Below, one piece after another: positions 9,148 through 48,264 of a stretch of 64,000 nt of DNA. The notes beneath the pieces are model-generated. The model had not been told where the DNA came from and did not search any database. It worked only from the letters and a program-made list of their open reading frames with translations. The DNA comes from Gaiellales bacterium (GTDB lineage Bacteria > Actinomycetota > Thermoleophilia > Gaiellales > JAICJC01). The DNA is taken from the NCBI GenBank assembly GCA_035473255.1, contig DATIOK010000130.1, forward strand, positions 1,211 to 65,210, in the 5' to 3' direction. The translations under genes and the position numbers were made by a program. Position 1 is the first letter of the stretch. Every line of letters begins with the position of its first letter.

Positions 9148-10653
9148 CTAGAACCACTTGGTGTAGATCGGGTCCGGCACCGGCACCGCGTGGTCGGCCG
9201 GCGTGCCGTGAAACAGCGACGTGATGCCCTTCGACCAGGCCTTCGCGCGGTCGGTCAGCTGCCGGTCGTCGGTCTGCATGCGCCCGCGGGTCACGATCAC
9301 ACCCAGATCGCCGCCCTTGTAGCGGTACTCGTCGGTGCCGTAGACGCGCAGGTAGAAGGCCTCGTCGTCATGTCCGACCGTGTGCCACGTGGTCACCAGC
9401 CGCACGAACTCGATGCTGCCGTCCTCGCGCATCTGCCAGAGCCCGCTGGACGGGGCGCGGGTGATCCTCTCGACCGCGTCGTCGGTCTGCTTCAGCACCA
9501 GCTGGCTCCATTCGTCGTAGGTCTCCCACCGCTTCTGCAGCTTCTTCAGGTCGACCTCCCAGTCCACGTCCAGGAACTCGAGCAGGTGGAACAGGAACAG
9601 CGGCGCCCCGCCGTACTTCGACGTGAGCAGGTTGGTGAGCGGGCTGGCGCCGGAGATGCGCGGGTTGATCTCGCCCAGGTAGACCTCGCCGCTGCCGTTC
9701 TCGACCAGGAAGTCGACGCAGAAGACGCCGCTGTAGCCGTGCGCGTAGAGCGTGTCGCCGAGCTTGCGCGCCATCGCCCGGATCGAATCGCGCGTCGCCT
9801 TGTCGAACACGCCGGGAAACACGTCGTTGCCGCACCAGCCACCGCGGTAGGGGGTCAGCTCCTCGAAGCCGGTGATGTCGGTCTGGATCGGCCCCACCAG
9901 CGTGCCGTGCCTGGTGGCGCAGGCCTCCACCGTGCCCGGCAGGTGCTCGATCCGGCGCATGATCTTGAGCTCCTCGCCCTCGAGCTTCTCGGAGTGCTCG
10001 TCCCACTGCTCCTCGTTCGTGATGAAGAACGTGGTGCGGCCGGAGTCGCCGTAGGGCGTCTGCACGACCAGGTCGGAGCCGAGCTTTGCCTTGCGGGCGC
10101 GCTCCATCAGCTGCTTGAAGCTCTTGGCCCGGGCCAGCACGTTGGGCGCGCACTCGATGCCGGCCTCGCCGGCCAGCTGCGTGGTCGTGATCTTGGAATC
10201 GACGTGCTCGCGCAGCGCCCGCGGCGGCAGCGCGATGTCGAGCCCCAGCTCGCCGGCCAGCTCCTCGGTGTCGGAGTCGAACATGACGAACAGCACCTTG
10301 CCCCCGCCCCGTGCGTGCACGCGGTCGGCCACCTGCTTGTGGCCAAGCAGGTAGGTGTTCACGTCCTCGAACGAGCCGAAGTCGCGGGCCCCCTCGCTGT
10401 GCGGCACGAACACGTGCGGGTGGTGGCCGTCGAACGAGTCGAAGTAGGTGATGTACTCGAACGCCCCCACCCACTGGTCGATGCCGAGCACGTTGTAGGC
10501 GGTCGGGGAGACGAAGTAGATGGGCGTGCGGCTGGAGCGGGCGAACTGGTAGACGTCGTTGAGGCCGCGCAGCTTCGGCCGTGCCGAGCGCTTCGCCACA
10601 ATCCCCTTGCCAGGTGTCACCGGCGGTGTCCCCCTGTTGACGCCATCCGGCAA
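9148..10653 (-). CDS. ATP-grasp family ligase with pre-ATP-grasp N-domain (PGM1-like peptide ligase type)
   Basis: 501-aa ORF. It carries ATP-grasp signatures (LVVQTPYGDSGRTTFF, CVDFLVENGSGEVYLGEINPRISGASP). Only 10 bp upstream of the GST gene. Confidence 0.75.
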   Translation of the reverse strand: MPDGVNRGTPPVTPGKGIVAKRSARPKLRGLNDVYQFARSSRTPIYFVSPTAYNVLGIDQWVGAFEYITYFDSFDGHHPHVFVPHSEGARDFGSFEDVNTYLLGHKQVADRVHARGGGKVLFVMFDSDTEELAGELGLDIALPPRALREHVDSKITTTQLAGEAGIECAPNVLARAKSFKQLMERARKAKLGSDLVVQTPYGDSGRTTFFITNEEQWDEHSEKLEGEELKIMRRIEHLPGTVEACATRHGTLVGPIQTDITGFEELTPYRGGWCGNDVFPGVFDKATRDSIRAMARKLGDTLYAHGYSGVFCVDFLVENGSGEVYLGEINPRISGASPLTNLLTSKYGGAPLFLFHLLEFLDVDWEVDLKKLQKRWETYDEWSQLVLKQTDDAVERITRAPSSGLWQMREDGSIEFVRLVTTWHTVGHDDEAFYLRVYGTDEYRYKGGDLGVIVTRGRMQTDDRQLTDRAKAWSKGITSLFHGTPADHAVPVPDPIYTKWF

Positions 10654-11859: not shown

Positions 11860-13299
11860 ATGCGACTGGAGGAGTACGCGGCGCACGACGCTCTGGCGCT
11901 GGCAGAGCTGGTGCGGGAGGGGCAGGTGACGCCGGCCGAGCTGGCCCATCTGGCCGTGCGCGGGGCGGAGCGGACCGAGCCTCGCCTGGGCGCGATTGCG
12001 GGGCTGTATGACGATGCGGTGGAGTCGGCAGAGGCCGCGGAGCCGGGGCCGTTTCACGGCGTCCCGGTGCTGCTGAAGGATCTGTTCCACGGCGACGCCG
12101 GGCGGGCCACCGAGGCCGGCAGCCGCCTGGCCGAGGGATGGGTGGCGCAGGTGCAGTCGGAGCTGGTGCGACGGGTGCGGGCTTGCGGCATGGTGCCGGT
12201 CGGCCGCGCCACCACCTCCGAGTTCGGGGTGATGGGCACCACCGAGACGGTCGCCTGCGGCCCCACCAGCACGCCCTGGAGCGGTGACCACATGGCCGGC
12301 GGCTCCAGCGGCGGATCCGGCGCCGCGGTGGGCGCGGGAATCGTGCCGATCGCGACCGGCTCGGACGGCGGCGGCTCGATCAGGATCCCGGCATCGGCCT
12401 GCGGCGTGGTCGGCCTGAAGACCTCGCGGGGTCGTGTCACCTGGGCTCCGGCCGCGGGCGAGCCGCTGCTGGGCTGGGCGGTGCACCACGTGCTGACCCG
12501 GTCGCTGCGCGACACCGCCGCCTGCCTGGACGAGCTGGCCACGCCGTACCCCGGCGAGTCCTTCACACTGACGGGTCCGCCCGACGGCGGCTGGCTCGAC
12601 CAGCTGCAGCTGCAGCCCGGCCCGCTGCGCATCGCCTTCTGCTGGCAGCCGTGGTCCGGCGCCGAGGTGGTGGCCGAGATCCGGGCCGCCTGCGAGGCGA
12701 CGGCGACGCTGCTGTCCGGTCTCGGGCACGAGCTGATCGAGGCCTCGCCGCAGTTCTCCTGGGAGCAGTTCCTGGACGCGATGACCGTGATCTGGTCGTC
12801 CACCACCGCCCAGACCGTCGACGGGTTCGCCCAGGCGGTGGGCCGCGAGCCGAGCCCCGACAACCTCGAGCTCCCCACCTTCCGGATGGTCGAGTTCGGC
12901 CGCGCGGTGAAGGTCGGCGAGCTGCTGAACGCGATCGACTCGGCGGGATATGTGAGCCGGCAGGTGCGCGGCTTCTTCGAGGACTACGACGTGCTGCTGA
13001 CCCCTACGCTGGGAGCGCTGCCCGCCAGGCTCGGCACCTACCGGCCGGACGAGGAGCTCGAGCCCAAGCAGCTGTTCGGCTCGTGGGCGCACCTGGAGTC
13101 GTTCCTGCCGGTGTTCAACGCCTCCGGCCAGCCGGCCATCAGCCTGCCGCTGCACATGAGCGAGCAGGGGCTGCCGATCGGGATGCAGCTGGTCGGCCGG
13201 GTCGGGGCCGAAGCCACGCTGCTGCGCGTTTCCGCCCAGTTGGAGCAGGCGCTGCCGTGGGCGGCGCGGGTGCCGCCCCTCCACGTTTCCGATGGCTAG
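11860..13299 (+). CDS. amidase (amidase-signature family)
   Basis: 479-aa ORF with the AS motif GGSSGGSGAAVGAG and a catalytic Ser/Lys context. Divergent from the C45 gene across 41 bp. Confidence 0.9.
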   Translation: MRLEEYAAHDALALAELVREGQVTPAELAHLAVRGAERTEPRLGAIAGLYDDAVESAEAAEPGPFHGVPVLLKDLFHGDAGRATEAGSRLAEGWVAQVQSELVRRVRACGMVPVGRATTSEFGVMGTTETVACGPTSTPWSGDHMAGGSSGGSGAAVGAGIVPIATGSDGGGSIRIPASACGVVGLKTSRGRVTWAPAAGEPLLGWAVHHVLTRSLRDTAACLDELATPYPGESFTLTGPPDGGWLDQLQLQPGPLRIAFCWQPWSGAEVVAEIRAACEATATLLSGLGHELIEASPQFSWEQFLDAMTVIWSSTTAQTVDGFAQAVGREPSPDNLELPTFRMVEFGRAVKVGELLNAIDSAGYVSRQVRGFFEDYDVLLTPTLGALPARLGTYRPDEELEPKQLFGSWAHLESFLPVFNASGQPAISLPLHMSEQGLPIGMQLVGRVGAEATLLRVSAQLEQALPWAARVPPLHVSDG

Positions 13300-13969
13300 C
13301 GGCGATCACAGCCGTCCGGTGGTTGTCGACCGTCGGGACACGCCGCGCGGCGAGCTGGTGCTGCGCCGTGCCGGCTCTCACCACGAAGTGATCGCGAACG
13401 GCACCTTCATGATGGACACGCGCGACGGCCGCTCGGAGCGGGCTCTGGTGCGCGAGGCGCTGGCCGGCCTGGCGGACGCCCGGCTGCTGCTGGGCGGCCT
13501 CGGCGTCGGCTTCTCGCTGGACGAGGCGCTGCGCGGCGACCGCGTCTCGGACGTGGTCGTGATCGAGCTCGAGCCGGCCGTGGTCGAGTGGGCCGGCACA
13601 CATCTGCGCCGCCTCAACCGCCACGGCGTGAACGACCACCGCGTGCGGCTGGTGGTGGGCGACCTGCGCAGGCAGCTCGGCCGGCTGGGCTGTGAGTTCG
13701 ACGCCATCTGCCTGGACGTCGACAACGGGCCGGGCTGGCTCGTGCACGAGGCCAACGCGGAGCTCTACAGTGACGACGGCCTCGAGTCGCTGGCGGGGCT
13801 GCTGCGGCCGGGTGGCCGCCTTGCGGTGTGGGCCTCGGCGCCCGACCTCGAGTTCGAGCGCCGGCTGCGCGCGCGGTTCGCGGTGGTGCGCACCGTCACG
13901 GTCGACGTCGCCCGCGGCCCGGCGGACGTGATGTACATAGCTTCTCTACCCAAAGCCGACGGCGGTTGA
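13292..13969 (+). CDS. spermidine synthase-like SAM-dependent transferase
   Basis: 225-aa ORF overlapping the amidase stop by 8 nt. It has an LLLGGLGVGFS GxGxG motif and an aminopropyltransferase-like layout. Confidence 0.65.
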   Translation: MASGDHSRPVVVDRRDTPRGELVLRRAGSHHEVIANGTFMMDTRDGRSERALVREALAGLADARLLLGGLGVGFSLDEALRGDRVSDVVVIELEPAVVEWAGTHLRRLNRHGVNDHRVRLVVGDLRRQLGRLGCEFDAICLDVDNGPGWLVHEANAELYSDDGLESLAGLLRPGGRLAVWASAPDLEFERRLRARFAVVRTVTVDVARGPADVMYIASLPKADGG

Positions 13970-14956
13970 CGCCGGCAGCGGGCTGCGCGGCAGGTCGTCG
14001 CGCGGCGTGCCCAGGTTGTAGTCCGACGGCGCCACGTCGTTGGGCGTGTCCGCGTAAAAGACGCTGGCCAGCGTCTGGATCTGCGAGCGTCCGCGGTCGA
14101 GTTCGAACTGGCCGCCGCCGTACATGCGGATGCCGCGCTGCTCGCAGGCATCGATGCACTCCAGCAGACGCCGCACGCTCCCGAAGCGGGACGGCTTGAT
14201 GTTCATCCAGCGCGGATCCACCGGTAACGCGTCGACGTCGGCCAGCGAGTGGATGGGCGCGTCGAAGCTGAGGCGGTCGAGCGCTCCCGACAGCGCCTCG
14301 CGGCATTCGCCGTCCAGGGCGGCGTCCTCGATCACGGCGTCGGGGAAGCGCTCGGCCAGCATCCGATAGAGCACCGGATCGGGAGCCACGTCCACGGGGG
14401 TGCCCGTGTAGTAGGCCTTGAAGTCGAGCACGCGCACGCGGCCGGAGGCGGCCAGCGTCGCGATCAGCGGCTCGTCCCACGTCGGCTCGGGGTCGAGCTT
14501 GAACTCGAGCTGCGGGTCGAACTCGAGCCAGGGACCGATCTCACCCCGCGTCGAGAGCACGAAGCGCACCGGCCGCGCCTCGCGCCCGGCCGCGTCGGCC
14601 AGCGACCGCCCCGCCTGCTGCAGGCCCAGGTCGAGCGCCGCGCTCTCGAACGCCCAGCGGCGGTAGTCGCGCGACGCGTCCATCTCCGGCGGGGTGCCGG
14701 GGAACAGGTCGTGGGGGTCGATCAGCTGCGACAGCTCGTCCAGGCTGTGCCGTCCGGCCAGCTGCAGGTCGGCCGGGAAGCCGTCGTGATCGCCGGCGGT
14801 GTAGGTGACATCCTCGCCCACGCCCGTGTGGCCGGCGCCCTCCATCACCACCAGCGTTGTCACGCGGGTAAACTCGGTCGAGACCTGTGTCTCACGCCGC
14901 TCAAGCCGGTAGTGCTCGAGGTCGATCGGCAGATCGGCAAGGCGGTCGTAGAGCAC
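13946..14956 (-). CDS. enolase-superfamily (mandelate racemase/muconate lactonizing-like) protein
   Basis: 336-aa ORF. The C-terminal barrel motif MYGGGQFELDRGRSQIQTLA and acidic ligand-like positions are present. The family call is tentative. Confidence 0.55.
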   Translation of the reverse strand: MLYDRLADLPIDLEHYRLERRETQVSTEFTRVTTLVVMEGAGHTGVGEDVTYTAGDHDGFPADLQLAGRHSLDELSQLIDPHDLFPGTPPEMDASRDYRRWAFESAALDLGLQQAGRSLADAAGREARPVRFVLSTRGEIGPWLEFDPQLEFKLDPEPTWDEPLIATLAASGRVRVLDFKAYYTGTPVDVAPDPVLYRMLAERFPDAVIEDAALDGECREALSGALDRLSFDAPIHSLADVDALPVDPRWMNIKPSRFGSVRRLLECIDACEQRGIRMYGGGQFELDRGRSQIQTLASVFYADTPNDVAPSDYNLGTPRDDLPRSPLPASTAVGFG

Positions 14957-21639: not shown

Positions 21640-22896
21640 TTACGAGCCGGGCGTGGCCAGGTCGATGCGGGTGAAGGAGGCGCGGCCGGCGGCCTCCCGT
21701 ACCGACCACAGCTGGTCTGGGCGGATCGAGAGCAGCGCGTTCTGGTCGGGCAGCGTGATCGCGGCGCCGGCCAGGCGGTTCACCGATGGGTCGAGCTCGC
21801 GGACGCCCTGGCCCGCGATCGCCAGCCAGATCGCGCCTGCGGCGGCGGCCATGGCGGAGGCCGGTGCCGGCAGGGCGATTATCTGCGGGGCGCGGCCGGG
21901 CGGGCCGTCGAAGCGGAGCAGCTGTGGACGTCCGTCGCGGGTGCCCGCGACCCACACGGCGCCGGCTCCCGCTGCGATCACGCTGGGGACGAGCCCGGAC
22001 AGCCGGGTCGCTCCCAGCACGTGGCCGTCCGCGGCGCTGAGCGCAATGATCGAGGACGCGGTCAGCGCCCACACCCGCCGGCTGCTGCCGGCGATCGCCA
22101 GCACGCCGGTCACCGGGGTGAGGGTGGCCCGACCATTGTCGATGCGGGCAACGCCGCCGGCCAGCGCCACCCAGATCTGGCCATTCGCGACCAGCGGCGC
22201 GCAGGACGTGGCTGGAGTCGAGCAGCCGGCGACGCCGGGCAGCGGCAGGCGCGACTGAACCTTGCCGGAGCCGCGGTCGCGGAAGACCAGCTCGGCGCCC
22301 GCGGGGCCGTTCACCAGCAACATCAGTGAGCCGCCGGACACGGCCACCCCCAGCGCGGGGCGGACGGAGGCGAAGGTGTAGTTGACCGAGCCGTCGGTCG
22401 CCGCCAGCCGCGTGACGGAGCCGCCGGCGGCCTGGTACCAGAGGCCACCGTTGCCGGCGGCGGCGACGGCGATGCCGTGAGCAGCCGGGGCGGTGGCGGC
22501 GACGGTGGTCGAGACGGTGAAGGCGGGCGGACGCCGGCTGACGGCGGGGGCCGGTGCGGAGCCGCCCGAATCGCCCTGCAGCCACATCACCAGGCCGATC
22601 ACGGCGGCGACCACGATCGGGAGCATCAGCGCGGCGATCGCCAGCCGGCCGGCCCGGCGGCGGTCGCGGGCGACGCGGTCGCGGGCGGGCGCGCGCACGA
22701 CCGCGGGGGCCTGTTGCGGGACGGGTGGTGAGGGCGGCACCTGGCCGGTCGTGGGATCGATGCGGAGCCCGTGCTCGGAGGTCTCACGGGCGGTCAGCAG
22801 CGCGAAGCGAGGGTCGTCGACGTGTTCGACCACCAGATCGCCTCCCGGCTCGGGTGCCCGCGCCGCGGGCGGTTCACGCGGATCCGTCACGAGCAT
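21640..22896 (-). CDS. single-pass membrane protein with repeat-rich (beta-propeller-like) extracytoplasmic domain
   Basis: 418-aa ORF with a cytoplasmic N-tail, one TM helix (LAIAALMLPIVVAAVIGLVMWL), then a repetitive G/A/V-rich strand pattern. No recognisable catalytic motif. Confidence 0.55.
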   Translation of the reverse strand: MLVTDPREPPAARAPEPGGDLVVEHVDDPRFALLTARETSEHGLRIDPTTGQVPPSPPVPQQAPAVVRAPARDRVARDRRRAGRLAIAALMLPIVVAAVIGLVMWLQGDSGGSAPAPAVSRRPPAFTVSTTVAATAPAAHGIAVAAAGNGGLWYQAAGGSVTRLAATDGSVNYTFASVRPALGVAVSGGSLMLLVNGPAGAELVFRDRGSGKVQSRLPLPGVAGCSTPATSCAPLVANGQIWVALAGGVARIDNGRATLTPVTGVLAIAGSSRRVWALTASSIIALSAADGHVLGATRLSGLVPSVIAAGAGAVWVAGTRDGRPQLLRFDGPPGRAPQIIALPAPASAMAAAAGAIWLAIAGQGVRELDPSVNRLAGAAITLPDQNALLSIRPDQLWSVREAAGRASFTRIDLATPGS

Positions 22897-22953
22897 CCAC
22901 TGTACAAACCACCTCGGCTAGCGCGGCCGCAGCGGACCGGTAGGATCTGCCGC

Positions 22954-24942
22954 ATGCATTCCTCTTACGCCCTTGACGCAAGCGATTTTGCCGTCGAACG
23001 GGACGGCAAGCAGCAGCCGCTGTCCGAACTGTGGCCGGGCGGATACCAGCCCGGCGACCGGCTCGGCGTCGTGCTCGCCCAGCCGATGGACGCCGTCGGC
23101 TGCTCCAACCTGATCTGCGCGACCATCACGCTGTTCTACGACTACATGCGGGCCACCCTCGGCACCGGCAACTTCTTCCGCTACTGCGATACCTACTTGT
23201 TCGGCGTTGGCTGCGAGGCCGGCGACTTCAACCAGCTGGACATCTGGCCGCTGCACAAGTGGGTGACGATTCTGAACCCGACCACCGAGGCGCTACTGGA
23301 GGCGGTCAACGACCGCAAGGTCAACCTGCTGGCGATCCCCGAGACGGGCGCGCGCTGCCGCGGCGAGGTGGTGCTCTCGACGTGGAACGCCTATCTGTCG
23401 CACGTGAAGTCGGTCGTGACGTACTCGCCGCGCACCGGCGTGGCGCGTGACTCCGACGTGCACCTGGTCGGAAACCGCGTGGTCGAGAGCTACGTGGAGC
23501 AGGCGATCTTCACGACGCCGGGGCTGGACGCCGGGTTCCAGGCCAAGCTGCGGCGGCTGCGGCGCAACATCGACCGGGAGGAGAAGCAGCCGGTCGAGGG
23601 CTACCGCACGCTGGCCGGGCCGGCGCAGGCGCGGGCGCTGCTGGGCGTGACCCAGGTGCTGCCGCCCGGCCACCAGGAGCTGACGCGGCGCGCGACCCCG
23701 ACGACGATCATGCCCGTGGAGGTGCCGATGCCGGCCCTCGACGGCGACGCGGCCCCTTTTGACATCGCCGCCGCCGCGGCGCTGCAGGTCGATCGGCCGG
23801 CACCGTCCGGCGCCTACCCGGACGGGCTCCTGCGAACGGGGTTCGACGGTATCCAGCGGCGGCTGGGCGGCAACTTCGCGGAGTGGGAGGGCTGGGACTG
23901 GATCTCGGACTTCGGCGACCCGATCGCCGAGCACCACACGGTGCGCGAGGCGGTCGGCATCTGGGACGAGTCGCCGCTTCGCAAGTGGTTCTTCAGGGGC
24001 ACGAAGGCGATGGCGGCGGTCGACTACTGCTTCACGGCCGACATGGCCGGCCTCGAGGCGGGGCAGGCGCGCTACGCGCCCTTCGTGGACGCACAGGGCA
24101 GGATGCTGGGCGACGGCGTCGTCTTCCGCGGCGACGACCCCGAGAACGTGCTGGTGGTGACGGCGCTCGACACCGACGCCGACCACTTCCGCCGGATAAC
24201 CGGCGACTTCGGGATCGAGATCACGGAGCACACGATGGAGATGCCGCACCTGCAGGTGCAGGGGCCGCGCTCGCGCGAGCTGCTGTCCGCCGTGACCGAC
24301 GCCGACGTCGCCGGACTGCGGTACTTCCGGTTCCTGACGGAGCCGGTCTCGGTCTGCGGTGCGCCCTGCTACGTGGCCCGCACCGGCTACTCGGGTGAGC
24401 TCGGCTACGAGGTGTTCTGCGAGCCGGGCGATGCGGAGCAGGTCTGGCAGGGGCTGCTCGACCAGGGCGCCGCGATGGGCATCCGGCCCTACGGGCTGGC
24501 GGCGGTCGAGAGCCTGCGGATCGAGGCCGGGCTGATCTTCATCGGCTTCGACTACTTCCCGGGCGTGACATCGCCCTTCCACGTCAACCTCGACCGCATG
24601 ATCAAGCTGGACAAGGGCGACTTCCATGGCAAGCAGGCGTTGCAGGCGGAGCTCGACGCGGGCATCACGCACCGCATGGTGACGCTCGTGATCGCCGGTG
24701 AGGACGCGCCCGACTACAACACGCCGGTGCTCTCGAACGGGCGCGGCGTGGGCAAGCTGACATCACCCAGCGCGGGACGCTCGCCGACGGTGGACAAGCT
24801 GATCGCGATGGCCTGCATCGAGGCGGACCTGGCCGAGGTGGGCAGGCAGGTCGAGGTGACGCTGCCCGACGGCCGGCTGGTGCCGGCGCTGGTCGACCAG
24901 TTCCCGATCTACGACCCCGAGAAGTCGCGACCGCGCTCCTAG
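22954..24942 (+). CDS. fusion protein: uncharacterised ~330-aa N-domain plus GcvT-type aminomethyltransferase domain
   Basis: ATG at 22954 (MHSSYALDASDF) within ORF 22771..24942. The C-terminal half has the GcvT pattern (EHHTVREAVGIWDESPLRKW, ARTGYSGELGYEVF, SLRIEAGL). Confidence 0.8.
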   Translation: MHSSYALDASDFAVERDGKQQPLSELWPGGYQPGDRLGVVLAQPMDAVGCSNLICATITLFYDYMRATLGTGNFFRYCDTYLFGVGCEAGDFNQLDIWPLHKWVTILNPTTEALLEAVNDRKVNLLAIPETGARCRGEVVLSTWNAYLSHVKSVVTYSPRTGVARDSDVHLVGNRVVESYVEQAIFTTPGLDAGFQAKLRRLRRNIDREEKQPVEGYRTLAGPAQARALLGVTQVLPPGHQELTRRATPTTIMPVEVPMPALDGDAAPFDIAAAAALQVDRPAPSGAYPDGLLRTGFDGIQRRLGGNFAEWEGWDWISDFGDPIAEHHTVREAVGIWDESPLRKWFFRGTKAMAAVDYCFTADMAGLEAGQARYAPFVDAQGRMLGDGVVFRGDDPENVLVVTALDTDADHFRRITGDFGIEITEHTMEMPHLQVQGPRSRELLSAVTDADVAGLRYFRFLTEPVSVCGAPCYVARTGYSGELGYEVFCEPGDAEQVWQGLLDQGAAMGIRPYGLAAVESLRIEAGLIFIGFDYFPGVTSPFHVNLDRMIKLDKGDFHGKQALQAELDAGITHRMVTLVIAGEDAPDYNTPVLSNGRGVGKLTSPSAGRSPTVDKLIAMACIEADLAEVGRQVEVTLPDGRLVPALVDQFPIYDPEKSRPRS

Positions 24943-26461: not shown

Positions 26462-27361
26462 GTGCCTCGCCCACTGCGTGTCGGAGTGCAGCTCCCAGAG
26501 ACCGAGCGGGTCGTCCGCTGGCCCGAGTATCTGGCCATGGCGACGGCCGCCGAGCAGGTCGGATTCGACTCGATCTGGCTCGGCGATCACCTGCTCTACG
26601 CCCCCGAGCACGGCCGCCCCGAGCGCGGACCCTGGGAGGTCTGGACGATGCTTGGGGCGCTTGCCGCGGCGACCGAACGGGTCTCGCTCGGCCCGCTGGT
26701 GGCGTGCACGGCATTCCACAGCCCCGGCCTGCTGGCGAAGATGGCGGCCACCGTCGATGACGTCAGCGGCGGCCGCCTCGTGCTGGGCCTCGGTGCCGGC
26801 TGGAACGAGCGCGAGTTCAGCGCGTTCGGCCTGCCCTACGACCGCCGCGTGTCGCGCTTCGCCGAGTCGTTCGAGATCGTGCACGGGCTGCTGGCCGGCG
26901 AGCGCGTCAGCATGGACGGCAACTTCTCCCAGGTCGACGACCTGGTGCTGCTGCCACCGCCGGCGCGGCGGATCCCGATCATGATCGGCTCGAACGGGCC
27001 GCGCATGCTCAGCCTGACCCTGCCCCACGCCGACTCCTGGAACACCTGGTTCGACGACTACGGCAACTCGCCCGACGGCTTCGCGGCCCTCAACCGGCGG
27101 ATCAGCGAGGCGGCCGAGCAGGCCGGCCGTGACCCTGCGCAGATCGAGCGCAGCGCCTGCGTCGCCGTCGCGTTGGACGACTCCGGCGAGCGGTCGGCCC
27201 ACCCCGACGCGCCGCCCGTGGCCGGCGGCGCCGACCTGGCAGCGCACCTGCGCGACCTCGCGGCGGCAGGGGCGGACGAGGCGATTCTGGTGGTCAGCCC
27301 GATCACCGAGGGCTCGATCCGCGAGCTGGCCGGTGCGCTGGCTGCGCTCGACGTCGGCTAG
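26462..27361 (+). CDS. LLM-class (luciferase-like) F420/flavin-dependent oxidoreductase
   Basis: 299-aa ORF with FDSIWLGDHLLY and GRLVLGLGAGW motifs. Confidence 0.85.
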   Translation: MPRPLRVGVQLPETERVVRWPEYLAMATAAEQVGFDSIWLGDHLLYAPEHGRPERGPWEVWTMLGALAAATERVSLGPLVACTAFHSPGLLAKMAATVDDVSGGRLVLGLGAGWNEREFSAFGLPYDRRVSRFAESFEIVHGLLAGERVSMDGNFSQVDDLVLLPPPARRIPIMIGSNGPRMLSLTLPHADSWNTWFDDYGNSPDGFAALNRRISEAAEQAGRDPAQIERSACVAVALDDSGERSAHPDAPPVAGGADLAAHLRDLAAAGADEAILVVSPITEGSIRELAGALAALDVG

Positions 27362-27639
27362 GCCGTCGCGCGCTCGCCGAAGCGGGCGATCGACCGTTCG
27401 CGGGCGCGCTCGATCTCGCGGGCGCGGTCACGCGGCGGCGCGGTCGCGACCAGCTCGCCCAGCAGCGTCGACGTGGCCTCCGCGACCGCCTCGACGGCGC
27501 GCTGGAAGGCCTCCTCGTTGACCCGGGCGGGCTTGGTCATCCCGCTCACCTTGCGCACGTATTGCAGGGCCGCGTTGTGCGCGTCCTGCTCGGTGCTGGC
27601 CGGCTCGTAGTTGTGAAGTGGTCGGATGTTTCTGCACAT
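27358..27639 (-). CDS. DUF2277-family small protein
   Basis: 93-aa ORF starting MCRNIRPLHNYEPAST, the characteristic N-terminus of this family. Confidence 0.75.
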   Translation of the reverse strand: MCRNIRPLHNYEPASTEQDAHNAALQYVRKVSGMTKPARVNEEAFQRAVEAVAEATSTLLGELVATAPPRDRAREIERARERSIARFGERATA

Positions 27640-27690
27640 GCGCCCACTCTAGCCCGACCTGTGGCCCGACGTTGCTAGGCTCGGCAAAGC

Positions 27691-28152
27691 ATGCTTGCGC
27701 CCGGCGATCTGATCCCCGATCTGAGCCTGTTCGGCGTCGACGCCGAGCGGGTGCGTCTGCGCGATCTGGGCGCCGCGGTGATCGCCTTCTACCTGTACGA
27801 CTGGACAAGCACCTGACGGAGTGAGCTGAGGCTCCTGCGTGACAGGAGCGCGGAGTTCGCGGAGCTGGGCGTGGCGGTGGTGGGCATCTCACGCGACAGC
27901 CCCTACTCGCACATCGAGTGGTCGCGGCGGCTCAGCCTCGGCTACCCGCTGCTCTCGGACTGGAACGCCGAGGCGGTGCGGGCGTTCGGCGTCTCGCAGG
28001 ACCTGGACGGCCTCGCCGACACCCCTGTGCGGTCGGCCTTCGTGGTCGACGGCGAGGGCGCCGTGCGTGCCGCTCACCGCTACGGCGACGGCGAGCTGCC
28101 CGACGTCGAGCAGCTGCTGGACGAGGCGGCGGCACTGAACCGCGCGTCCTGA
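27691..28152 (+). CDS. AhpE/BCP-like 1-Cys peroxiredoxin with in-frame TGA (candidate selenocysteine) at the peroxidatic position
   Basis: The ATG at 27691 opens MLAPGDLIPDLSLFGVDAERVRLRDLGAAVIAFYLYDWTST-TGA-RSELRLLRDRSAEFAELGVAVVGISRD..., which joins track ORF 27871..28152 in frame. The TGA at 27814-27816 aligns with Cys of the TxxC Prx motif (AhpE FTGICQGELDQLRD). Confidence 0.6.
27831..27849 (+). promoter_or_regulatory. candidate bacterial SECIS-like hairpin
   Basis: GCTCCTG-CGTGA-CAGGAGC: 7-bp stem, 5-nt loop containing GU, beginning 14 nt after the TGA. Confidence 0.4.
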
Positions 28153-28249
28153 TGTGCGCGGGATTGGAACCGAATCGCCACACCGGTAACGAATCGCTTG
28201 CTCGCGGGTCCATAATTCCGATATCTACGTAAAGGGAGCTGATCACCAC

Positions 28250-28798
28250 ATGACCGAGAAGGCCACCTTCGCAGCCGGCTGTTTCTGGGGCGTCGAGCAT
28301 GCGTTCATGCAGATCGACGGCGTCACCGCCACCCAGGTCGGATACATCGGCGGAACCGTCGACGACCCGGACTACCGCACCGTTTGCAGCGGACGCACCG
28401 GCCACGCCGAGGCCGTCGAGGTCGAGTACGACCCCGAGCAGGTCAGCTACGAGCAGCTGCTGGCCGTGTTCTGGGGCGAGCACGATCCCACCCAGAAGAA
28501 CCGCCAGGGGCCGGACGTCGGCACCCAGTACCGGTCGGAGATCTTCGTGCACTCGCCCGAGCAGCGGCGGATCGCCGAGCAGTCGCTGGCCGCCATGCAG
28601 ACGCACCTGGGCAAGCCGATCGCGACCCAGATCACCGAGGCGCCGACGTTCTGGCGCGCCGAGGAGTACCACCAGCGCTACTTCGAGAAGCACGGCCAGG
28701 TCGCCTGCAAGCTGCAGGCGCCAGCGCCCGTGACCGCTCGCAGCGAGCCGGTCGAGCAGCGCTCCGGTCTTCTGTCCGGACTGTTCAGCCGCTCGTAG
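28250..28798 (+). CDS. msrA: peptide-methionine (S)-S-oxide reductase
   Basis: 182-aa ORF with the GCFWG active site and the HDPTQ..NRQG..G.QYRS motif. SD AAGGGAG lies upstream. Confidence 0.92.
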
Positions 28799-28849
28799 AC
28801 GAACGGGCCGCGCGGGTGGCGACATGGTCGCCCTCGCGCGGCCGGTATC

Positions 28850-29218
28850 GTGAGCGGCATGCTCAGCACGGGCAGCTTCGCCGTTCATATCGCCGACCTC
28901 GACCTCGATCTCGACCCGCTCGATCCCGGGAGCATCGTCGAGGGCTCGCCCCAGACCTGGAACCGGGTGGTCTGGGGGAGCGAGGACGGCCGCATCATCC
29001 GCGGCGTCTGGCAGATCTCGCCAGGGGTCGTGGTCGATACTGAGGCCCACGAGATGTTCGTCGTGATCGCCGGCCGCGCCACGATCGCCATCGACGGCGG
29101 CACCACGTTCGACGTCGGCCCGGGCGACATGGGTGTGCTCGAGGAGGGCGCCCGCTCCACCTGGACCGTGCACGAGACGCTGCGCAAGGCGTATCAGATC
29201 CTGCTGCCCGCGTCGTGA
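28850..29218 (+). CDS. cupin-fold protein (DUF861/EutQ-like)
   Basis: 122-aa ORF with a cupin beta-barrel pattern (HEMFVVIAGRATIAIDGG..FDVGPGD). Confidence 0.7.
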   Translation: MSGMLSTGSFAVHIADLDLDLDPLDPGSIVEGSPQTWNRVVWGSEDGRIIRGVWQISPGVVVDTEAHEMFVVIAGRATIAIDGGTTFDVGPGDMGVLEEGARSTWTVHETLRKAYQILLPAS

Positions 29219-31744: not shown

Positions 31745-31949
31745 AGGGAGAGCAGCCCGTCAGCTGCTCCAGCGCGACCATCCAGCTGTCGTAGTAGGGC
31801 CGGTCGGGATCCTCGGCGATCGCGGCCTTGAGTCGCTCGCGGAAGGCGTCCCAGGGCTGGTCCATGCTGCGGCAGGCGACCTGCGCCATCGCGAACAGCC
31901 GCGCCTGCCAGGGCTCGGTGAAGGCCTCGTCCGGCAGGTCGGTGATCAC
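31743..31949 (-). CDS. nitrile hydratase accessory (activator) protein
   Basis: GTG at 31949 overlaps the alpha-subunit stop (GTGA). The 68-aa product VITDLPDEAFTEPWQARLFAMAQV... is typical of P14K-type activators. Confidence 0.75.
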   Translation of the reverse strand: MITDLPDEAFTEPWQARLFAMAQVACRSMDQPWDAFRERLKAAIAEDPDRPYYDSWMVALEQLTGCSP

Positions 31950-32563
31950 GCCGAGACGCCCTCGGTCACGCCTGGCACCGCCACGCCGACCATGCAGTCG
32001 CGCGTAACAAGGTCGGCCAGGCCCTGTTCGTCCAGGTGCTCGGTGCCGTCGGGCCGCATCGGCAGCACGATGTAGCGCACCTCGGCGCTCGAGTCCCAGA
32101 TCCTGATCGCGGTCGTCTCCGGCAGCTCCAGCCCGAACTCGCGCAGCACCGCCCGCGGCTCGCGCACCATGCGGGCGCGGTAGGGCGGGCTCTTGTACCA
32201 GACCGGCGGCACGCCCAGCACCGGCCAGGGATAGCACGAGCAGAGCGTGCACACGATCGCATTGTGGGTGACGGGCGTGTTCTCGACGCAGACCAGACGC
32301 TCGCCCTCGGCGCCGCCGTACCCCATCTCGGCGGCTGCGGCGGTGCCGTCGGCCAGCAACCGCTTGCGGTAGGCCGGATCGACCCACGCTCGTGCCACCA
32401 TGCGCGCGCCCCGCCGCGGCCCGATCTCGTTCTGGAACTGCTCGACGACGGCGTCCACAGCGTCGGTCGAGATGAGGCCGCGCTCGACCAGCAGCGCCTC
32501 GAGTGCCATGGTGCGCAGTTCCGACCGTGACTTCTCGCGGGCGTGGTGGTGCCCCTCGCTCAT
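31946..32563 (-). CDS. nthA: nitrile hydratase alpha subunit (Co-type)
   Basis: ATG at 32563 (MSEGHHHAREKS). Metal-binding motif VCTLCSCYPWPVLG; Thr in CTLCSC indicates the cobalt type. Confidence 0.92.
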   Translation of the reverse strand: MSEGHHHAREKSRSELRTMALEALLVERGLISTDAVDAVVEQFQNEIGPRRGARMVARAWVDPAYRKRLLADGTAAAAEMGYGGAEGERLVCVENTPVTHNAIVCTLCSCYPWPVLGVPPVWYKSPPYRARMVREPRAVLREFGLELPETTAIRIWDSSAEVRYIVLPMRPDGTEHLDEQGLADLVTRDCMVGVAVPGVTEGVSA

Positions 32564-33219
32564 GCCGCCTCCTCCAGGTAGGTCTCCCACAGATCGACCA
32601 GCACCGTGTGGTCGGCGCCGTCGTCGGGCCACAGGTCGGCGGCCGCGAAGGAGACCGTGTAGCACGGTGCGCGGCGCTGCTCGCCCAGGTCCTCGTTCTC
32701 AGGCAGCCAGTCCGGCGCAAGCCGCCGCTCGACGACCCCCGCGACGCCGCGCACGTAGCGTGGACAGCGGTTGTGCACCGTCGTCGAGATGCGGCGCACG
32801 CGCACCGGTTGTCCGACCGCGAAGCGATGGCCGCCCTCCGGTCGCGCGGGCGGTCGTGGCTGCATGTCGGCCCGCACCGCCTCCACCATCGCCGGATCCG
32901 ACCGTTCCGGCACCTGCCCGCCGGCCCGCAGCGCCTCGACCCGACGATCGACGTCGGCGGGGGCCAGGACACCGCGTTCGGCCAGCATCACCTCGAGCGC
33001 GTGCTCCCATCGCTCATAGTACGACGACGCCAGGTAACGCCCGGTCTCGATCCGCTCCACCTGTGGCCGCATGACGCCGATCGGGCCGCCGGTGGCCCAC
33101 AGCGTCAGCGACATGCCGAACACGCGGCCTTCCCAGCGCTCGTGGAATGGGGGCTCGCCCGGCTCGGACACGACCGCGTCGAACCCCTGCATGCCGCCCA
33201 TGTCATGGATGCCGTCCAC
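32560..33219 (-). CDS. nthB: nitrile hydratase beta subunit
   Basis: GTG at 33219 gives VDGIHDMGGMQGFDAV, the canonical beta N-terminus. ATGA overlap with alpha. Confidence 0.9.
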   Translation of the reverse strand: MDGIHDMGGMQGFDAVVSEPGEPPFHERWEGRVFGMSLTLWATGGPIGVMRPQVERIETGRYLASSYYERWEHALEVMLAERGVLAPADVDRRVEALRAGGQVPERSDPAMVEAVRADMQPRPPARPEGGHRFAVGQPVRVRRISTTVHNRCPRYVRGVAGVVERRLAPDWLPENEDLGEQRRAPCYTVSFAAADLWPDDGADHTVLVDLWETYLEEAA

Positions 33220-47901: not shown

Positions 47902-48230
47902 GCGGCCACCGCCTGTGCCAGCGCCTCGCGCAGCCGCGCGGGATCGGGAGTGGGCGACGGGCGGCCGTCGGCGCGGCGGTAGATGCGGCAGGTGAGGCCG
48001 GGCATGTCGTCGGCCGGGAAGGGGTCGACGCCCCCGATGCGGATCGTGGGCGATCCCGGGAAGCGCTCCTCCACAGCCTGCTGCTCGGTCGCCATCTCGC
48101 GCATCTCGACCGCGTCGGGATCGAGGCCAAGGTCGGTCAGCGCGGCGCGCAGGTCGGCCAGCGTGCGCTCGGTGGACGGGCAGCCCTGCCACCAGAGAAG
48201 CTCGATGCGAGGTCGCATGGCCGTCAGCAT
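47898..48230 (-). CDS. small thioredoxin-like fold protein
   Basis: 110-aa ORF with a WWQGCPST (CxxT) motif near the N-terminus and a GSPTIRIGG cis-Pro-like region. Confidence 0.6.
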   Translation of the reverse strand: MLTAMRPRIELLWWQGCPSTERTLADLRAALTDLGLDPDAVEMREMATEQQAVEERFPGSPTIRIGGVDPFPADDMPGLTCRIYRRADGRPSPTPDPARLREALAQAVAA

Positions 48231-48264
48231 AGCCGGGCCGTGCCGACTAGGATCGCTCGCTCAG

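Follow-up and report, generated by a model that had tools for sequence, protein, structure and literature searches.

The window, by which we mean the whole 64-kb stretch of Gaiellales DNA analysed here, carries a peroxiredoxin gene whose reading frame contains one in-frame TGA. Read from the ATG at 27691, this frame comprises 153 codons and closes at the TGA at 28150-28152, and its only internal TGA lies at 27814-27816. All coordinates given for it in the preliminary description of the locus proved correct, and the ORF listing likewise confirmed the observation that the ORF track reports only the C-terminal 93 codons. The features of the locus are as follows.

27691..28152, + strand: predicted Sec-peroxiredoxin CDS, 153 codons (M1...S153, U42) plus terminal TGA (translation, Pfam, 36 orthologs, dN/dS)
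27793..27816, + strand: active-site motif L35-Y-D-W-T39-S-T-U42 (alignment to 2ywn and 1xxu; family motif in all Sec forms)
27814..27816, + strand: UGA codon 42, putative Sec codon (TGA in 34/37 orthologs, TGC in 3/37; TGA in six independent assemblies)
27818..27859, + strand: extended candidate SECIS, with lower helix (27818-27822/27855-27859), internal loop, upper helix and apical loop (RNAalifold consensus)
27831..27849, + strand: candidate apical SECIS hairpin, 7-bp stem GCUCCUG/CAGGAGC, 5-nt loop CGUGA with G at loop position 2
27871..28152, + strand: 93-codon ORF of the ORF finder/gene caller, an artefact in which the same peroxiredoxin gene lacks its N-terminal part
28030..28032, + strand: Arg114 codon, conserved peroxiredoxin active-site Arg (invariant in 34 Sec forms; aligns with the AhpE Arg)
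28250..28798, + strand: msrA, peptide methionine sulfoxide reductase, Cys type (Pfam PMSR, 218.9 bits; context only)

A peroxiredoxin with TGA at the catalytic position

With codon 42 read as Cys, the product matched the Pfam family AhpC-TSA (PF00578) over residues 4-127 with 97.8 bits (cut-off 26) and an E-value of 5.8e-28. HMMER alignments paired codon 42 with the peroxidatic Cys of both S. tokodaii 2ywn ('FTQVC') and M. tuberculosis AhpE 1xxu ('FTGIC'), and R114 ('PVRSAF') with the Arg of AhpE 'ANRGTF', which bears out the earlier proposal that the TGA lies at the peroxidatic Cys position with the T-x-x-C spacing and the later Arg intact. The catalytic Thr-x-x-Sec and Arg are all present (T39, U42 and R114). 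The 34 homologs with TGA at this codon, here termed Sec forms, all have T41 and R114, carry either Thr or Ser at column 39 and share the family motif FY[LI][FY]DW[ST]xTU; the equivalent of Arg114 is also invariant in 28 Cys homologs (R119 of homolog P0003).

The closest solved relatives are Bcp4 (3hjp), 2ywn and AhpE (1xxu). The protein had been called AhpE-like, and AhpE does follow close behind (E 1.6e-13, full-length, ~29% identity), but Sulfolobus Bcp4 scores higher in both sequence (E 2.9e-17) and fold searches, placing the family between BCP/PrxQ and AhpE. An AF2 model of P0003, a 54%-identical Cys homolog, had a pLDDT of 92.4 and placed its Cys in the first turn of helix 45-56; it superposed on Bcp4 with a TM-score of 0.89 (rmsd 1.5 Å) and on AhpE with TM-scores of 0.86-0.88 (rmsd 1.9-2.0 Å). 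The 153-aa product did not reach the cut-off of any NCBIfam model, and the PrxU equivalog NF040737 (peroxi_PrxU) gave 40.6 bits, below its cut-off of 270 bits. The resolving Cys of BCP/PrxQ proteins at +5, which the BCP-like outgroups L037, L038 and L040 carry, is replaced by Arg in the window clade and by Glu in the main clade. Since the translated product contains no other Cys, it would be a '1-Sec' enzyme, and it is best read, from these alignments, as a predicted 1-Sec peroxiredoxin of the BCP/AhpE-like group.

The TGA is conserved in an intact gene

Same-column TGA codons were found in 34 of 37 Gaiellales/Gaiellaceae orthologs with 45-94% amino acid identity, and the other three have TGC; TGA alternates solely with TGC at this column. 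MAGs with the gene include CAVXZW01 (MFD08821.bin.2.33), CAWCPM01 (MFD04967.bin.2.87), DASQYY01 and CAVVAB01, and L030 and L067 are of the TGC type. An intact start codon precedes the TGA by 41-45 codons, the start position and both halves of the gene are kept in 36 orthologs, and the 34 TGA orthologs contain neither frameshifts nor second stops. Values of dN/dS were below 1 (0.1-0.7) both upstream (41 codons) and downstream of the TGA, which indicates purifying selection on the upstream codons as well as on the downstream part. Near-identical strains from different samples also have the TGA in six independent assemblies (NCBI, ENA, JGI and Logan), and at least 53 full-length Cys homologs were found in the protein database among the matches listed. 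A TGA that lies exactly at the catalytic Cys of homologs and alternates with TGC is the signature of Sec/Cys pairs. The preliminary description had argued from the intact frame that this is not a decayed pseudogene, and had pointed to the ortholog column and the base call as the places to look; the retained TGA, the intact frame and the dN/dS values on both sides agree with that argument, and both the ortholog comparison and the repeated assemblies reproduce the TGA.

A conserved hairpin follows the TGA

The hairpin GCUCCUG-CGUGA-CAGGAGC begins 14 nt 3' of the TGA at 27814-27816. Its position, stem and loop are exactly those described previously, but the shape that had been offered in its favour is in itself no evidence (z about -1). 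Folded as a single sequence, the region was no more stable than its shuffled versions (z = -1.05 and -0.58), and this approach was dropped as SECIS evidence because values of -0.6 to -1.05 are unremarkable at the 71% GC of the window. The evidence consists of covariation and synonymous-site conservation, and this comparative signal greatly exceeds what chance would give.

All 34 Sec forms keep the 5-bp core paired; in orthologs L005 and L009, compensatory changes have turned C-G pairs into U-A. Position 2 of the loop is G in 34/34. Paired cells amounted to 93%, against 36-44% in slid controls, with both-side changes at six pairs. The lower helix shows both-side changes at three of its five pairs and 92.9% of cells paired; in the MFE fold of the window's own sequence, this lower stem is slightly shifted. 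Codons within the hairpin are near-fixed (Leu48 CTC 31/32, Leu49 CTG 33/34, Arg50 CGT 33/34, Asp51 GAC 34/34 and Arg52 AGG 32/33), and invariant Arg and Leu columns elsewhere in the gene use mixed codons and never AGG.

The core was intact in 34/34 TGA forms versus 1/6 TGC (Cys) forms (Fisher p = 9.1e-6), and none of 500 shuffles came up to the paired fraction or the covariation score of the real sequences, both figures overstating independence since the compared sequences share phylogeny. Four Cys forms retain the residues LLRDR with the stem broken by synonymous changes, and L071 is a Cys form in which the hairpin is still intact. The co-occurrence of hairpin and TGA, which the preliminary description had proposed as a check, is therefore borne out, with the core broken in five of the six Cys forms.

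Like the SECIS of E. coli fdhF, the candidate element is a coding-sequence stem-loop just after the UGA with G-U in a small apical loop and an internal loop between upper and lower helices; it differs in having no sequence similarity to fdhF and in the position of the loop G-U, which lies at +26/+27 from the U of the UGA, whereas the fdhF loop has G23/U24. Rfam gave no match to SECIS or any other family, either across the whole window at gathering thresholds or for 27780-27900 at E-values up to 10. A small apical loop with G at position 1 or 2 is a hallmark of bacterial SECIS elements (PMC13582414; see also PMC1088965). Judged by these comparisons, the structure downstream of UGA42 is conserved as a predicted SECIS element.

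TGA usage, selenocysteine genes and neighbourhood

TGA ends 22 of the 40 predicted window genes, the peroxiredoxin gene included, and is the commonest ordinary stop; UGA42 is the sole credible in-frame TGA in the 64 kb. Other candidates at 22729, 1172, 14980 and 17757 were rejected, being either junctions between genes or frames that do not code; the translation 5' of 22729 is of low complexity and rich in G/R/D.

The search for selA, selB, selD and tRNA-Sec was confined to the 64-kb window and ~0.6 Mb of related loci, where none was found. Across the window and 37 loci, ARAGORN reported tRNA-Thr only, and none of the 30 other window genes surveyed with Pfam was selenium-related. When E. coli SelA, SelB and SelD were compared by tblastn with the window and all loci, the only matches were weak ones to the SelB GTPase domain in Solirubrobacterales loci (L043-L053), which we take, from reading a 628-aa ORF, to be TypA/BipA. 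Solirubrobacter, Patulibacter and Conexibacter belong, like Gaiellales, to the class Thermoleophilia. SelD, SelA and SelB are recorded in genomes of Solirubrobacter, Patulibacter and Conexibacter Iso977N (Peng 2016 Table S1). Two related loci contain further candidates, namely a SelW/Rdx-like CxxU gene in L006 (TIGR02174 39.1, cut-off 34.2) and a DsbA-like UxxC gene in L025 (PF01323, E 3e-30), each with a GU-loop hairpin 3' of its TGA. These putative TGA genes would fit a normal Sec trait.

The preliminary description had placed the gene in an oxidative-stress cluster with msrA. The msrA gene does adjoin it, but this adjacency is kept solely in the closest clade (L001-L005), so that there is no family-wide oxidative-stress cluster, and a conserved redox operon was rejected on the same grounds. 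No promoter or terminator was detected in a scan of 27300-28900, which included the interval between the peroxiredoxin gene and msrA. By eye, a thioredoxin-type motif was not obvious in the ORFs neighbouring the L008 ortholog.

Discussion

Taken together, we consider that 27691-28152 encodes a SECIS-dependent, BCP/AhpE-like selenocysteine peroxiredoxin of 153 residues and ~17 kDa, with a probability of about 0.86. The central claim of the preliminary description, that the peroxidatic residue is specified by a recoded TGA with a downstream SECIS, thereby gains support from the ortholog TGA codons, the coupling of the hairpin to them and the independent assemblies. In the proposed mechanism, the ribosome would arrive at UGA42 while the mRNA 3' of this codon is folded into the lower helix, the internal loop, the 5-7 bp upper helix and the CGUGA loop, a structure that is itself conserved. 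The SECIS would recruit SelB with Sec-tRNA(Sec), and Sec would be inserted with no termination. By analogy with the family, Sec42 would lie where helix alpha2 begins, together with Thr39 and Arg114, and attack the peroxide O-O bond to form a selenenic acid, and an external thiol, either of the thioredoxin/mycoredoxin type or a low-molecular-weight thiol, may then regenerate the selenol. The Sec state appears to be ancestral in the large Gaiellales/Gaiellaceae family; several lineages apparently went back to Cys later on, and SECIS decay probably followed.

An improbable alternative keeps the same SECIS recoding and has the UGA decoded wholly or partly as Cys by a SelB-delivered, SelC*-type tRNA(ReC), which would yield an ordinary 1-Cys peroxiredoxin. 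Such tRNAs read UGA as Cys given a downstream SECIS, an inherent limit of selenoprotein calls from sequence (PMC13582414), and a conserved TGA and SECIS are equally expected under this explanation; neither tRNA-Sec nor selA/selD was found in the window and fetched loci. However, nothing found in these genomes speaks positively for tRNA(ReC), a plain TGC would yield an identical protein without extra cost, and the SelW-like and DsbA-like genes point towards a normal Sec trait. Lineages that switched to TGC promptly shed the hairpin, which argues that TGA and SECIS are retained for something that Cys cannot supply.

It is more improbable still that UGA42 is a real stop, separating a 41-residue peptide from a distinct 93-104-residue protein, with the hairpin acting in translational coupling or attenuation. 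In many orthologs, gene callers begin the downstream ORF at an ATG lying four codons 3' of the TGA ('MELLRDR...'), and the hairpin overlaps this start, yet the window clade (R-S-E-L-R-L-L) has kept both TGA and hairpin without that ATG. Moreover, a C-terminal piece devoid of the catalytic residue and Thr39 could not, judging from the structural model, adopt the thioredoxin fold of a peroxiredoxin, and a TGA placed exactly at the catalytic Cys of homologs and exchanged only for TGC is typical of Sec/Cys pairs.

It is scarcely credible that we are dealing with a pseudogene created by a nonsense mutation, or with an ordinary Cys peroxiredoxin in which faulty sequencing or assembly has produced the TGA: gene callers do split the gene into 41-aa and 93/100-aa ORFs and the hairpin alone is statistically ordinary, but identical-column TGA codons persist down to 45% identity in undamaged frames, both parts are under purifying selection, and separate samples and assemblers return the same codon. 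Genome-wide reassignment of TGA (e.g. to Trp or Gly), for which the in-frame TGA itself and nothing more could be cited, can be dismissed given the use of TGA as a terminator in more than half of the predicted window genes and the singularity of UGA42.

The favoured selenocysteine reading places the gene alongside known systems. Sec-peroxiredoxins with TxxU are an experimentally founded family (PMC13188914, PMC1088965, PMC1794560), and PrxU of Eubacterium acidaminophilum is the founding member of the prokaryotic selenoprotein family 'Prx' (PF00578). As these are already established, the Gaiellales gene adds a mis-annotated member, and the recoding itself is not new. The AhpC/TSA fold, Sec in place of the peroxidatic Cys in T-x-x-U, a bacterial SECIS inside the CDS and Cys homologs interleaved with Sec forms would all be common to both, whereas the Gaiellales protein is shorter (153 aa), has no second Cys, has Leu/Ile for Pro, occurs in high-GC soil Gaiellales and does not belong to the PrxU lineage. 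With M. tuberculosis AhpE (1xxu/1xvw) it shares a length of 153 aa (residues 2-149 aligned), an actinobacterial host, one catalytic chalcogen but no resolving Cys, and the conserved Thr and Arg. AhpE differs in having Cys and the canonical Pro (FFPLAFTGIC), and the Gaiellales family is at least as near to archaeal BCPs; mycothiol/mycoredoxin-1, the reductant of AhpE, would be no more than a candidate in Gaiellales. Among BCP/PrxQ proteins (Bcp4 3hjp, 2ywn and Xanthomonas PrxQ) are the best sequence and fold matches, and the nearest non-Gaiellales homologs (L037-L040) are BCP-like with 'FFPxAFTxVCTxELC'. The Gaiellales family departs from typical BCPs in the +5 position, in the change of Pro to Leu and in the predicted change of Cys to Sec.

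Full-text literature searches returned no report of a Sec-peroxiredoxin or Sec trait in Gaiellales. The Gaiellales/Gaiellaceae lineage has been recovered from many soil metagenomes and, to our knowledge, is not usually discussed as a Sec user; it would gain a candidate selenoprotein and, by implication, a selenium requirement. In public annotation the gene stands as two pieces, an ORF of 41 aa and a 'redoxin/peroxiredoxin' fragment of 93-104 aa. It had been anticipated that annotation would easily miss such a gene, and fragments indeed make up 67 of the best 120 database homologs, so that a family predicted to be catalytically complete is recorded as truncated proteins with no active site. UGA42 is almost certainly read through with Sec, and this putative recoding is conserved across a common soil actinobacterial group whose annotations miss it. 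For the evolution of Sec usage, the family may offer an unusually clean data set, in which one SECIS is common to two deep clades and several independent reversions to TGC are accompanied by hairpin decay at differing stages.

The motif L35-Y-D-W-T39-S-T-U42 is the family version of PxxxTxxC, with Leu for Pro and UGA for the Cys codon. The active-site Pro in PxxxTxxU has been described as highly conserved (PMC13188914). The Leu had been listed as a deviation; it is indeed present, but is no defect of this copy, since position U-7 is Leu or Ile in all 34 Sec forms. The missing Pro makes the term 'canonical Prx active site' less apt and leaves fold and family membership unaffected. All BCP-like outgroups have Pro here, as do some of the Cys forms (P0004, P0005, P0009, P0017 and L026), among them at least two Cys lineages nested in Sec clades (P0009/P0017; L026). 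A functional coupling between Sec and loss of this 'universal' Pro in the Gaiellales peroxiredoxin family is a tentative idea that we regard as doubtful. If it were true, about five Sec-to-Cys reversions would constitute a natural experiment, the intrinsic reactivity of Sec would relax or change the active-site architecture needed by Cys peroxiredoxins, and abundant aerobic soil Gaiellales would depend on selenium for peroxide defence. The Leu-for-Pro site of the Sec forms is a structure-function lead that is open to test.

A peroxiredoxin frame with TGA at the peroxidatic position

Reading from the ATG at 27691 on the + strand gave a frame of 153 codons that ends at a TGA stop (28150-28152) and contains one internal TGA, at 27814-27816 (codon 42); the mechanical ORF list holds only its last 93 codons (27871-28152). 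Once codon 42 is translated as Cys, the predicted product is unambiguously an AhpC/TSA peroxiredoxin: its residues 4-127 score 97.8 bits against Pfam PF00578, whose cut-off is 26. HMMER alignments with solved structures match codon 42 to the peroxidatic Cys in both S. tokodaii PrxQ (2ywn, FTQVC) and M. tuberculosis AhpE (1xxu, FTGIC), and Arg114 (PVRSAF) to the catalytic Arg. The preliminary description had proposed a full peroxiredoxin with a single TGA in place of the peroxidatic Cys, an intact later Arg (PVRSAFVVD) and only the C-terminal 93 codons in the ORF track, and all of this was recovered. Its central claim of a candidate selenoprotein is supported by TGA conservation, RNA-level selection and TGA-hairpin coupling: the TGA at the peroxidatic residue would be recoded as selenocysteine (Sec), with the downstream hairpin as the putative SECIS. 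Decoding of UGA42 as Cys via a SECIS-directed tRNA(ReC) is a less likely alternative that sequence analysis alone cannot tell apart from Sec.

The TGA is conserved across orthologs

One genome per species was scanned, which yielded 58 loci; 36 of these are Gaiellales/Gaiellaceae-type orthologs with 44-94% amino-acid identity to the window protein. TGA occupies the identical column in 33/36 (34/37 including the window), and the other three (L026 and L030/L031) carry TGC. In all TGA-type genes a start codon lies 41-45 codons 5' of the TGA, and no frameshift or second stop was found in any of the 34 translated genes. Pairwise Nei-Gojobori dN/dS was 0.11-0.72 over the 40-44 codons 5' of the TGA and 0.10-0.52 over the 107-114 codons 3' of it, and therefore both parts are kept as protein. 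Together with the conserved column and the lack of frameshifts, these values rule out a pseudogene, against which the intact downstream frame had already been held to argue.

Six more contigs from near-identical strains, located through the neighbouring MsrA protein in NCBI, ENA, JGI and Logan and derived from different samples, differ by 4-9 nt over the gene and carry TGA at codon 42 (6/6) and the same hairpin (6/6). The same TGA in orthologs and in these other assemblies rules out a sequencing error, and general TGA reassignment is ruled out because TGA ends 22 of the 40 predicted genes in the window, the studied gene included. No other credible in-frame TGA was found in the 64-kb window. 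The other predicted genes end in TAG (16) or TAA (2), a TAG share that looks somewhat large for a genome of 71% GC.

In all six contigs the gene caller had broken the gene in two, calling one ORF of 41 aa and another of 93 or 100 aa. Among the best 120 protein-database homologs, 67 are fragments of 87-111 aa that start just 3' of the TGA column, often with 'MELLRDR...', while 53 are full-length; a motif search placed Cys at the column in 49/53 and located no active-site motif in the other four. No NCBIfam model reaches its cut-off for the window protein, and the NCBI pipeline therefore has no rule to rescue the gene.

The downstream hairpin is coupled to the TGA

The hairpin GCUCCUG-CGUGA-CAGGAGC lies at 27831-27849, 14 nt 3' of the TGA, with a 7-bp stem and 5-nt loop as first described. 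Dinucleotide-shuffled sequences folded about as well as its region (z = -1.05 and -0.58; window 71.4% GC), and it has no match in Rfam; on its own, the hairpin is no evidence. Codon usage was tallied over the 34 TGA-type genes in a codon alignment.

Codon usage within the hairpin and at invariant residues outside it
Leu48, in hairpin: CTC 31/32
Leu49, in hairpin: CTG 33/34
Arg50, in hairpin: CGT 33/34
Asp51, in hairpin: GAC 34/34
Arg52, in hairpin: AGG 32/33
Arg68, invariant, outside hairpin: CGC 28, CGT 4, CGA 1, CGG 1
Leu83, invariant, outside hairpin: CTC 18, CTG 15, CTT 1
Arg114, invariant, outside hairpin: CGG 17, CGC 9, CGA 7, CGT 1

AGG is absent from all other invariant Arg columns of these genes. 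The codon exceptions within the hairpin are compensatory, giving CUUCUG/CAGAAG in L005 and CUCUUG/CAAGAG in L009, with one U-A pair changed to U-G in L003, L004 and L019. RNAalifold placed a lower helix (27818-27822 with 27855-27859) beyond an internal loop, and 3/5 of its pairs have changed on both sides. In the 12-pair structure 93.1% of cells are paired; sliding the partners by 1-3 columns lowers this to 36-44%, and none of 500 shuffles reached the observed values for paired fraction or covariation score. All 34 TGA-type sequences carry G at the second loop position, which is the consensus feature of SECIS elements in bacteria (PMC13582414; PMC1088965).

Among the TGC forms, the stem is broken in L026 (CGC GAC CGG) and the motif is lost entirely in the L030 clade. 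DNA fetched for four further Cys-type homologs retaining L-L-R-D-R revealed synonymous stem-breaking changes in three (CTG CTG CGG GAC AGA; CTG CTG CGC GAC CGG; CTC CTG CGT GAC CGT). The complete CUCCUG-CGUGA-CAGGAG hairpin is still present in the TGC-type locus L071 (1001-1459, protein P0021), presumably a very recent Sec-to-Cys conversion that precedes SECIS decay; its active-site motif is S-S-S-C instead of S-S-T-C. All 34 TGA forms keep the 5-bp core intact, against 1/6 TGC forms (Fisher p = 9.1e-6, in which independence is overstated, the sequences being related). Selection at the RNA level acts on the hairpin, and does so only in company with the TGA; this is how a SECIS is expected to behave, and not a structure that serves the protein sequence. 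The proposal of a SECIS-compatible hairpin draws on codon conservation, covariation and loss in most TGC forms, but gains nothing from the lone fold.

Sec machinery and further candidate selenoproteins

The only tRNA in the window is a tRNA-Thr, and no tRNA genes were found in 37 related loci. Using E. coli queries, tblastn detected no SelA, SelB or SelD in the window or related loci beyond GTPase-domain matches, which we take from the ORF sequence to be TypA/BipA. A scan of the Gaiellales loci for in-frame TGA codons flanked on either side by coding-type GC3 and accompanied by a GU-loop hairpin recovered every peroxiredoxin and two further genes of well-known selenoprotein families:

L006, about 11933-12160, minus strand, TGA at + coordinate 12121: SelW/Rdx-family candidate selenoprotein
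L025 (Gaiellaceae MAG), about 9606-10240, minus strand, TGA at + coordinate 10196: DsbA-like candidate selenoprotein

The L006 gene features a CxxU motif (VEIFYCPV-TGA-SGY; MRRVRVEIFYCPV-TGA-SGYDERAASL around the TGA), matches Pfam Rdx (E 3e-11), exceeds the 34.2 cut-off of TIGR02174 with a score of 39.1, and has a strong hairpin, AGCCGCGA-GUC-UCGCGGCU, 17 nt 3' of the TGA; its MAG is labelled Actinomycetota and was grouped with Gaiellales solely through its peroxiredoxin ortholog. The L025 gene features a UxxC motif (VIWSDYI-TGA-PFCRLG), matches PF01323 (DSBA, E 3e-30) and has a strong hairpin, GCUCGGCC-AGGUGAC-GGCCGAGC, 11 nt 3' of the TGA. Both candidates would lend indirect support to a Sec trait in the lineage.

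Solirubrobacter, Patulibacter and Conexibacter belong to the class Thermoleophilia, as do the Gaiellales. Further indirect support comes from Table S1 of Peng et al. 2016, which lists SelD, SelA and SelB in Solirubrobacter soli, Solirubrobacter sp. URHD0082, Patulibacter americanus and Conexibacter woesei Iso977N; the survey included no Gaiellales genome.

Peroxiredoxin class and active site

The PrxU equivalog NF040737 scored 40.6 against a cut-off of 270, so the window protein is not of the PrxU lineage. Of the solved structures, those most similar to it in sequence are Sulfolobus Bcp4 (3hjp, E 2.9e-17), S. tokodaii PrxQ (2ywn) and M. tuberculosis AhpE, which aligns end to end (residues 2-149). 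An AlphaFold2 model of P0003, a Cys homolog at 54% identity, was built on 28 family members (pLDDT 92.4) and places the Cys in the first turn of helix 45-56; its top Foldseek match was Bcp4 (TM 0.89, rmsd 1.5 A), followed by AhpE (TM 0.86-0.88) and PrxQ/BCP proteins. The AhpE half of the initial AhpE/BCP-like label fits only approximately: Bcp4 is closer in both sequence and fold.

Outside Gaiellales, the nearest homologs (L037-L040) are canonical BCPs that have the active-site Pro, and 3/4 have a resolving Cys at +5 (FFPMAFTSVCTAELC), whereas the Gaiellales family has Arg or Glu there. The window protein has no Cys elsewhere and would therefore be a one-chalcogen (1-Sec) enzyme like AhpE. Such an enzyme would be recycled by an external thiol.

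The Pro of PxxxTxxC/U is described as highly conserved (PMC13188914). The Leu noted earlier at this column (27793-27795) was confirmed, and Leu or Ile occurs there in 34/34 Sec forms. Pro is found in the outgroups and some Cys forms (P0004, P0005, P0009, P0017 and L026), of which P0009/P0017 and L026 are nested among Sec forms. Sec and Pro loss may be coupled in this family.

Evolution and novelty

In a rough neighbour-joining tree, Sec forms occur in both deep clades, represented by the motifs U-R-S-E-L-R-L-L-R-D-R (window clade) and U-T-N-E-M-E-L-L-R-D-R (main Gaiellaceae clade), and Cys forms are nested at several places. Since both clades share the same SECIS, the simplest reading of this crude tree would be a single Sec origin followed by about five reversions to Cys. 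The gene does adjoin msrA in the window, the basis of the proposed oxidative-stress cluster, but this adjacency is kept in L001-L005 only. At L008, one main-clade locus, no thioredoxin-type motif was recognised by eye in the ORFs flanking the peroxiredoxin.

Peroxiredoxins bearing Sec in a TxxU motif form a prokaryotic selenoprotein family that is already established. PrxU of Eubacterium acidaminophilum was its founding member, and several independent Cys-to-Sec events have been inferred for the family (PMC13188914, PMC1088965, PMC1794560). The proposed mechanism is the standard, already known one. What appears to be new is a BCP/AhpE-like, 153-residue, single-Sec member with Leu for Pro, probably ancestral to a large high-GC clade of soil Gaiellales and uniformly misannotated as fragments; a full-text literature search found no published Gaiellales Sec-peroxiredoxin.

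Other genes in the window

Two coding-type ORFs on the minus strand, 9148-10653 (501 aa, GC3 0.96) and 13946-14956 (336 aa, GC3 0.92), had no Pfam match at E <= 1e-5. At 22771-24942 (+), the aminomethyltransferase domains GCV_T and GCV_T_C are confined to residues 362-715 of a 723-aa ORF, and Pfam gave no match in the N-terminal part of about 360 residues; the start may be over-extended, or this part may be an uncharacterised domain. A nitrile hydratase alpha subunit is encoded at 31946-32665 (-) (PF02979, E 3e-86; CTLCSC metal-binding motif), and the same-strand ORFs that follow, to about 33630, presumably supply the beta subunit together with an accessory protein. The 939-aa ORF at 47983-50802 (+) shows an unusual fusion of an Old-Yellow-Enzyme-type FMN oxidoreductase, a pyridine-nucleotide-disulphide oxidoreductase and a C-terminal ETF-alpha FAD-binding domain.
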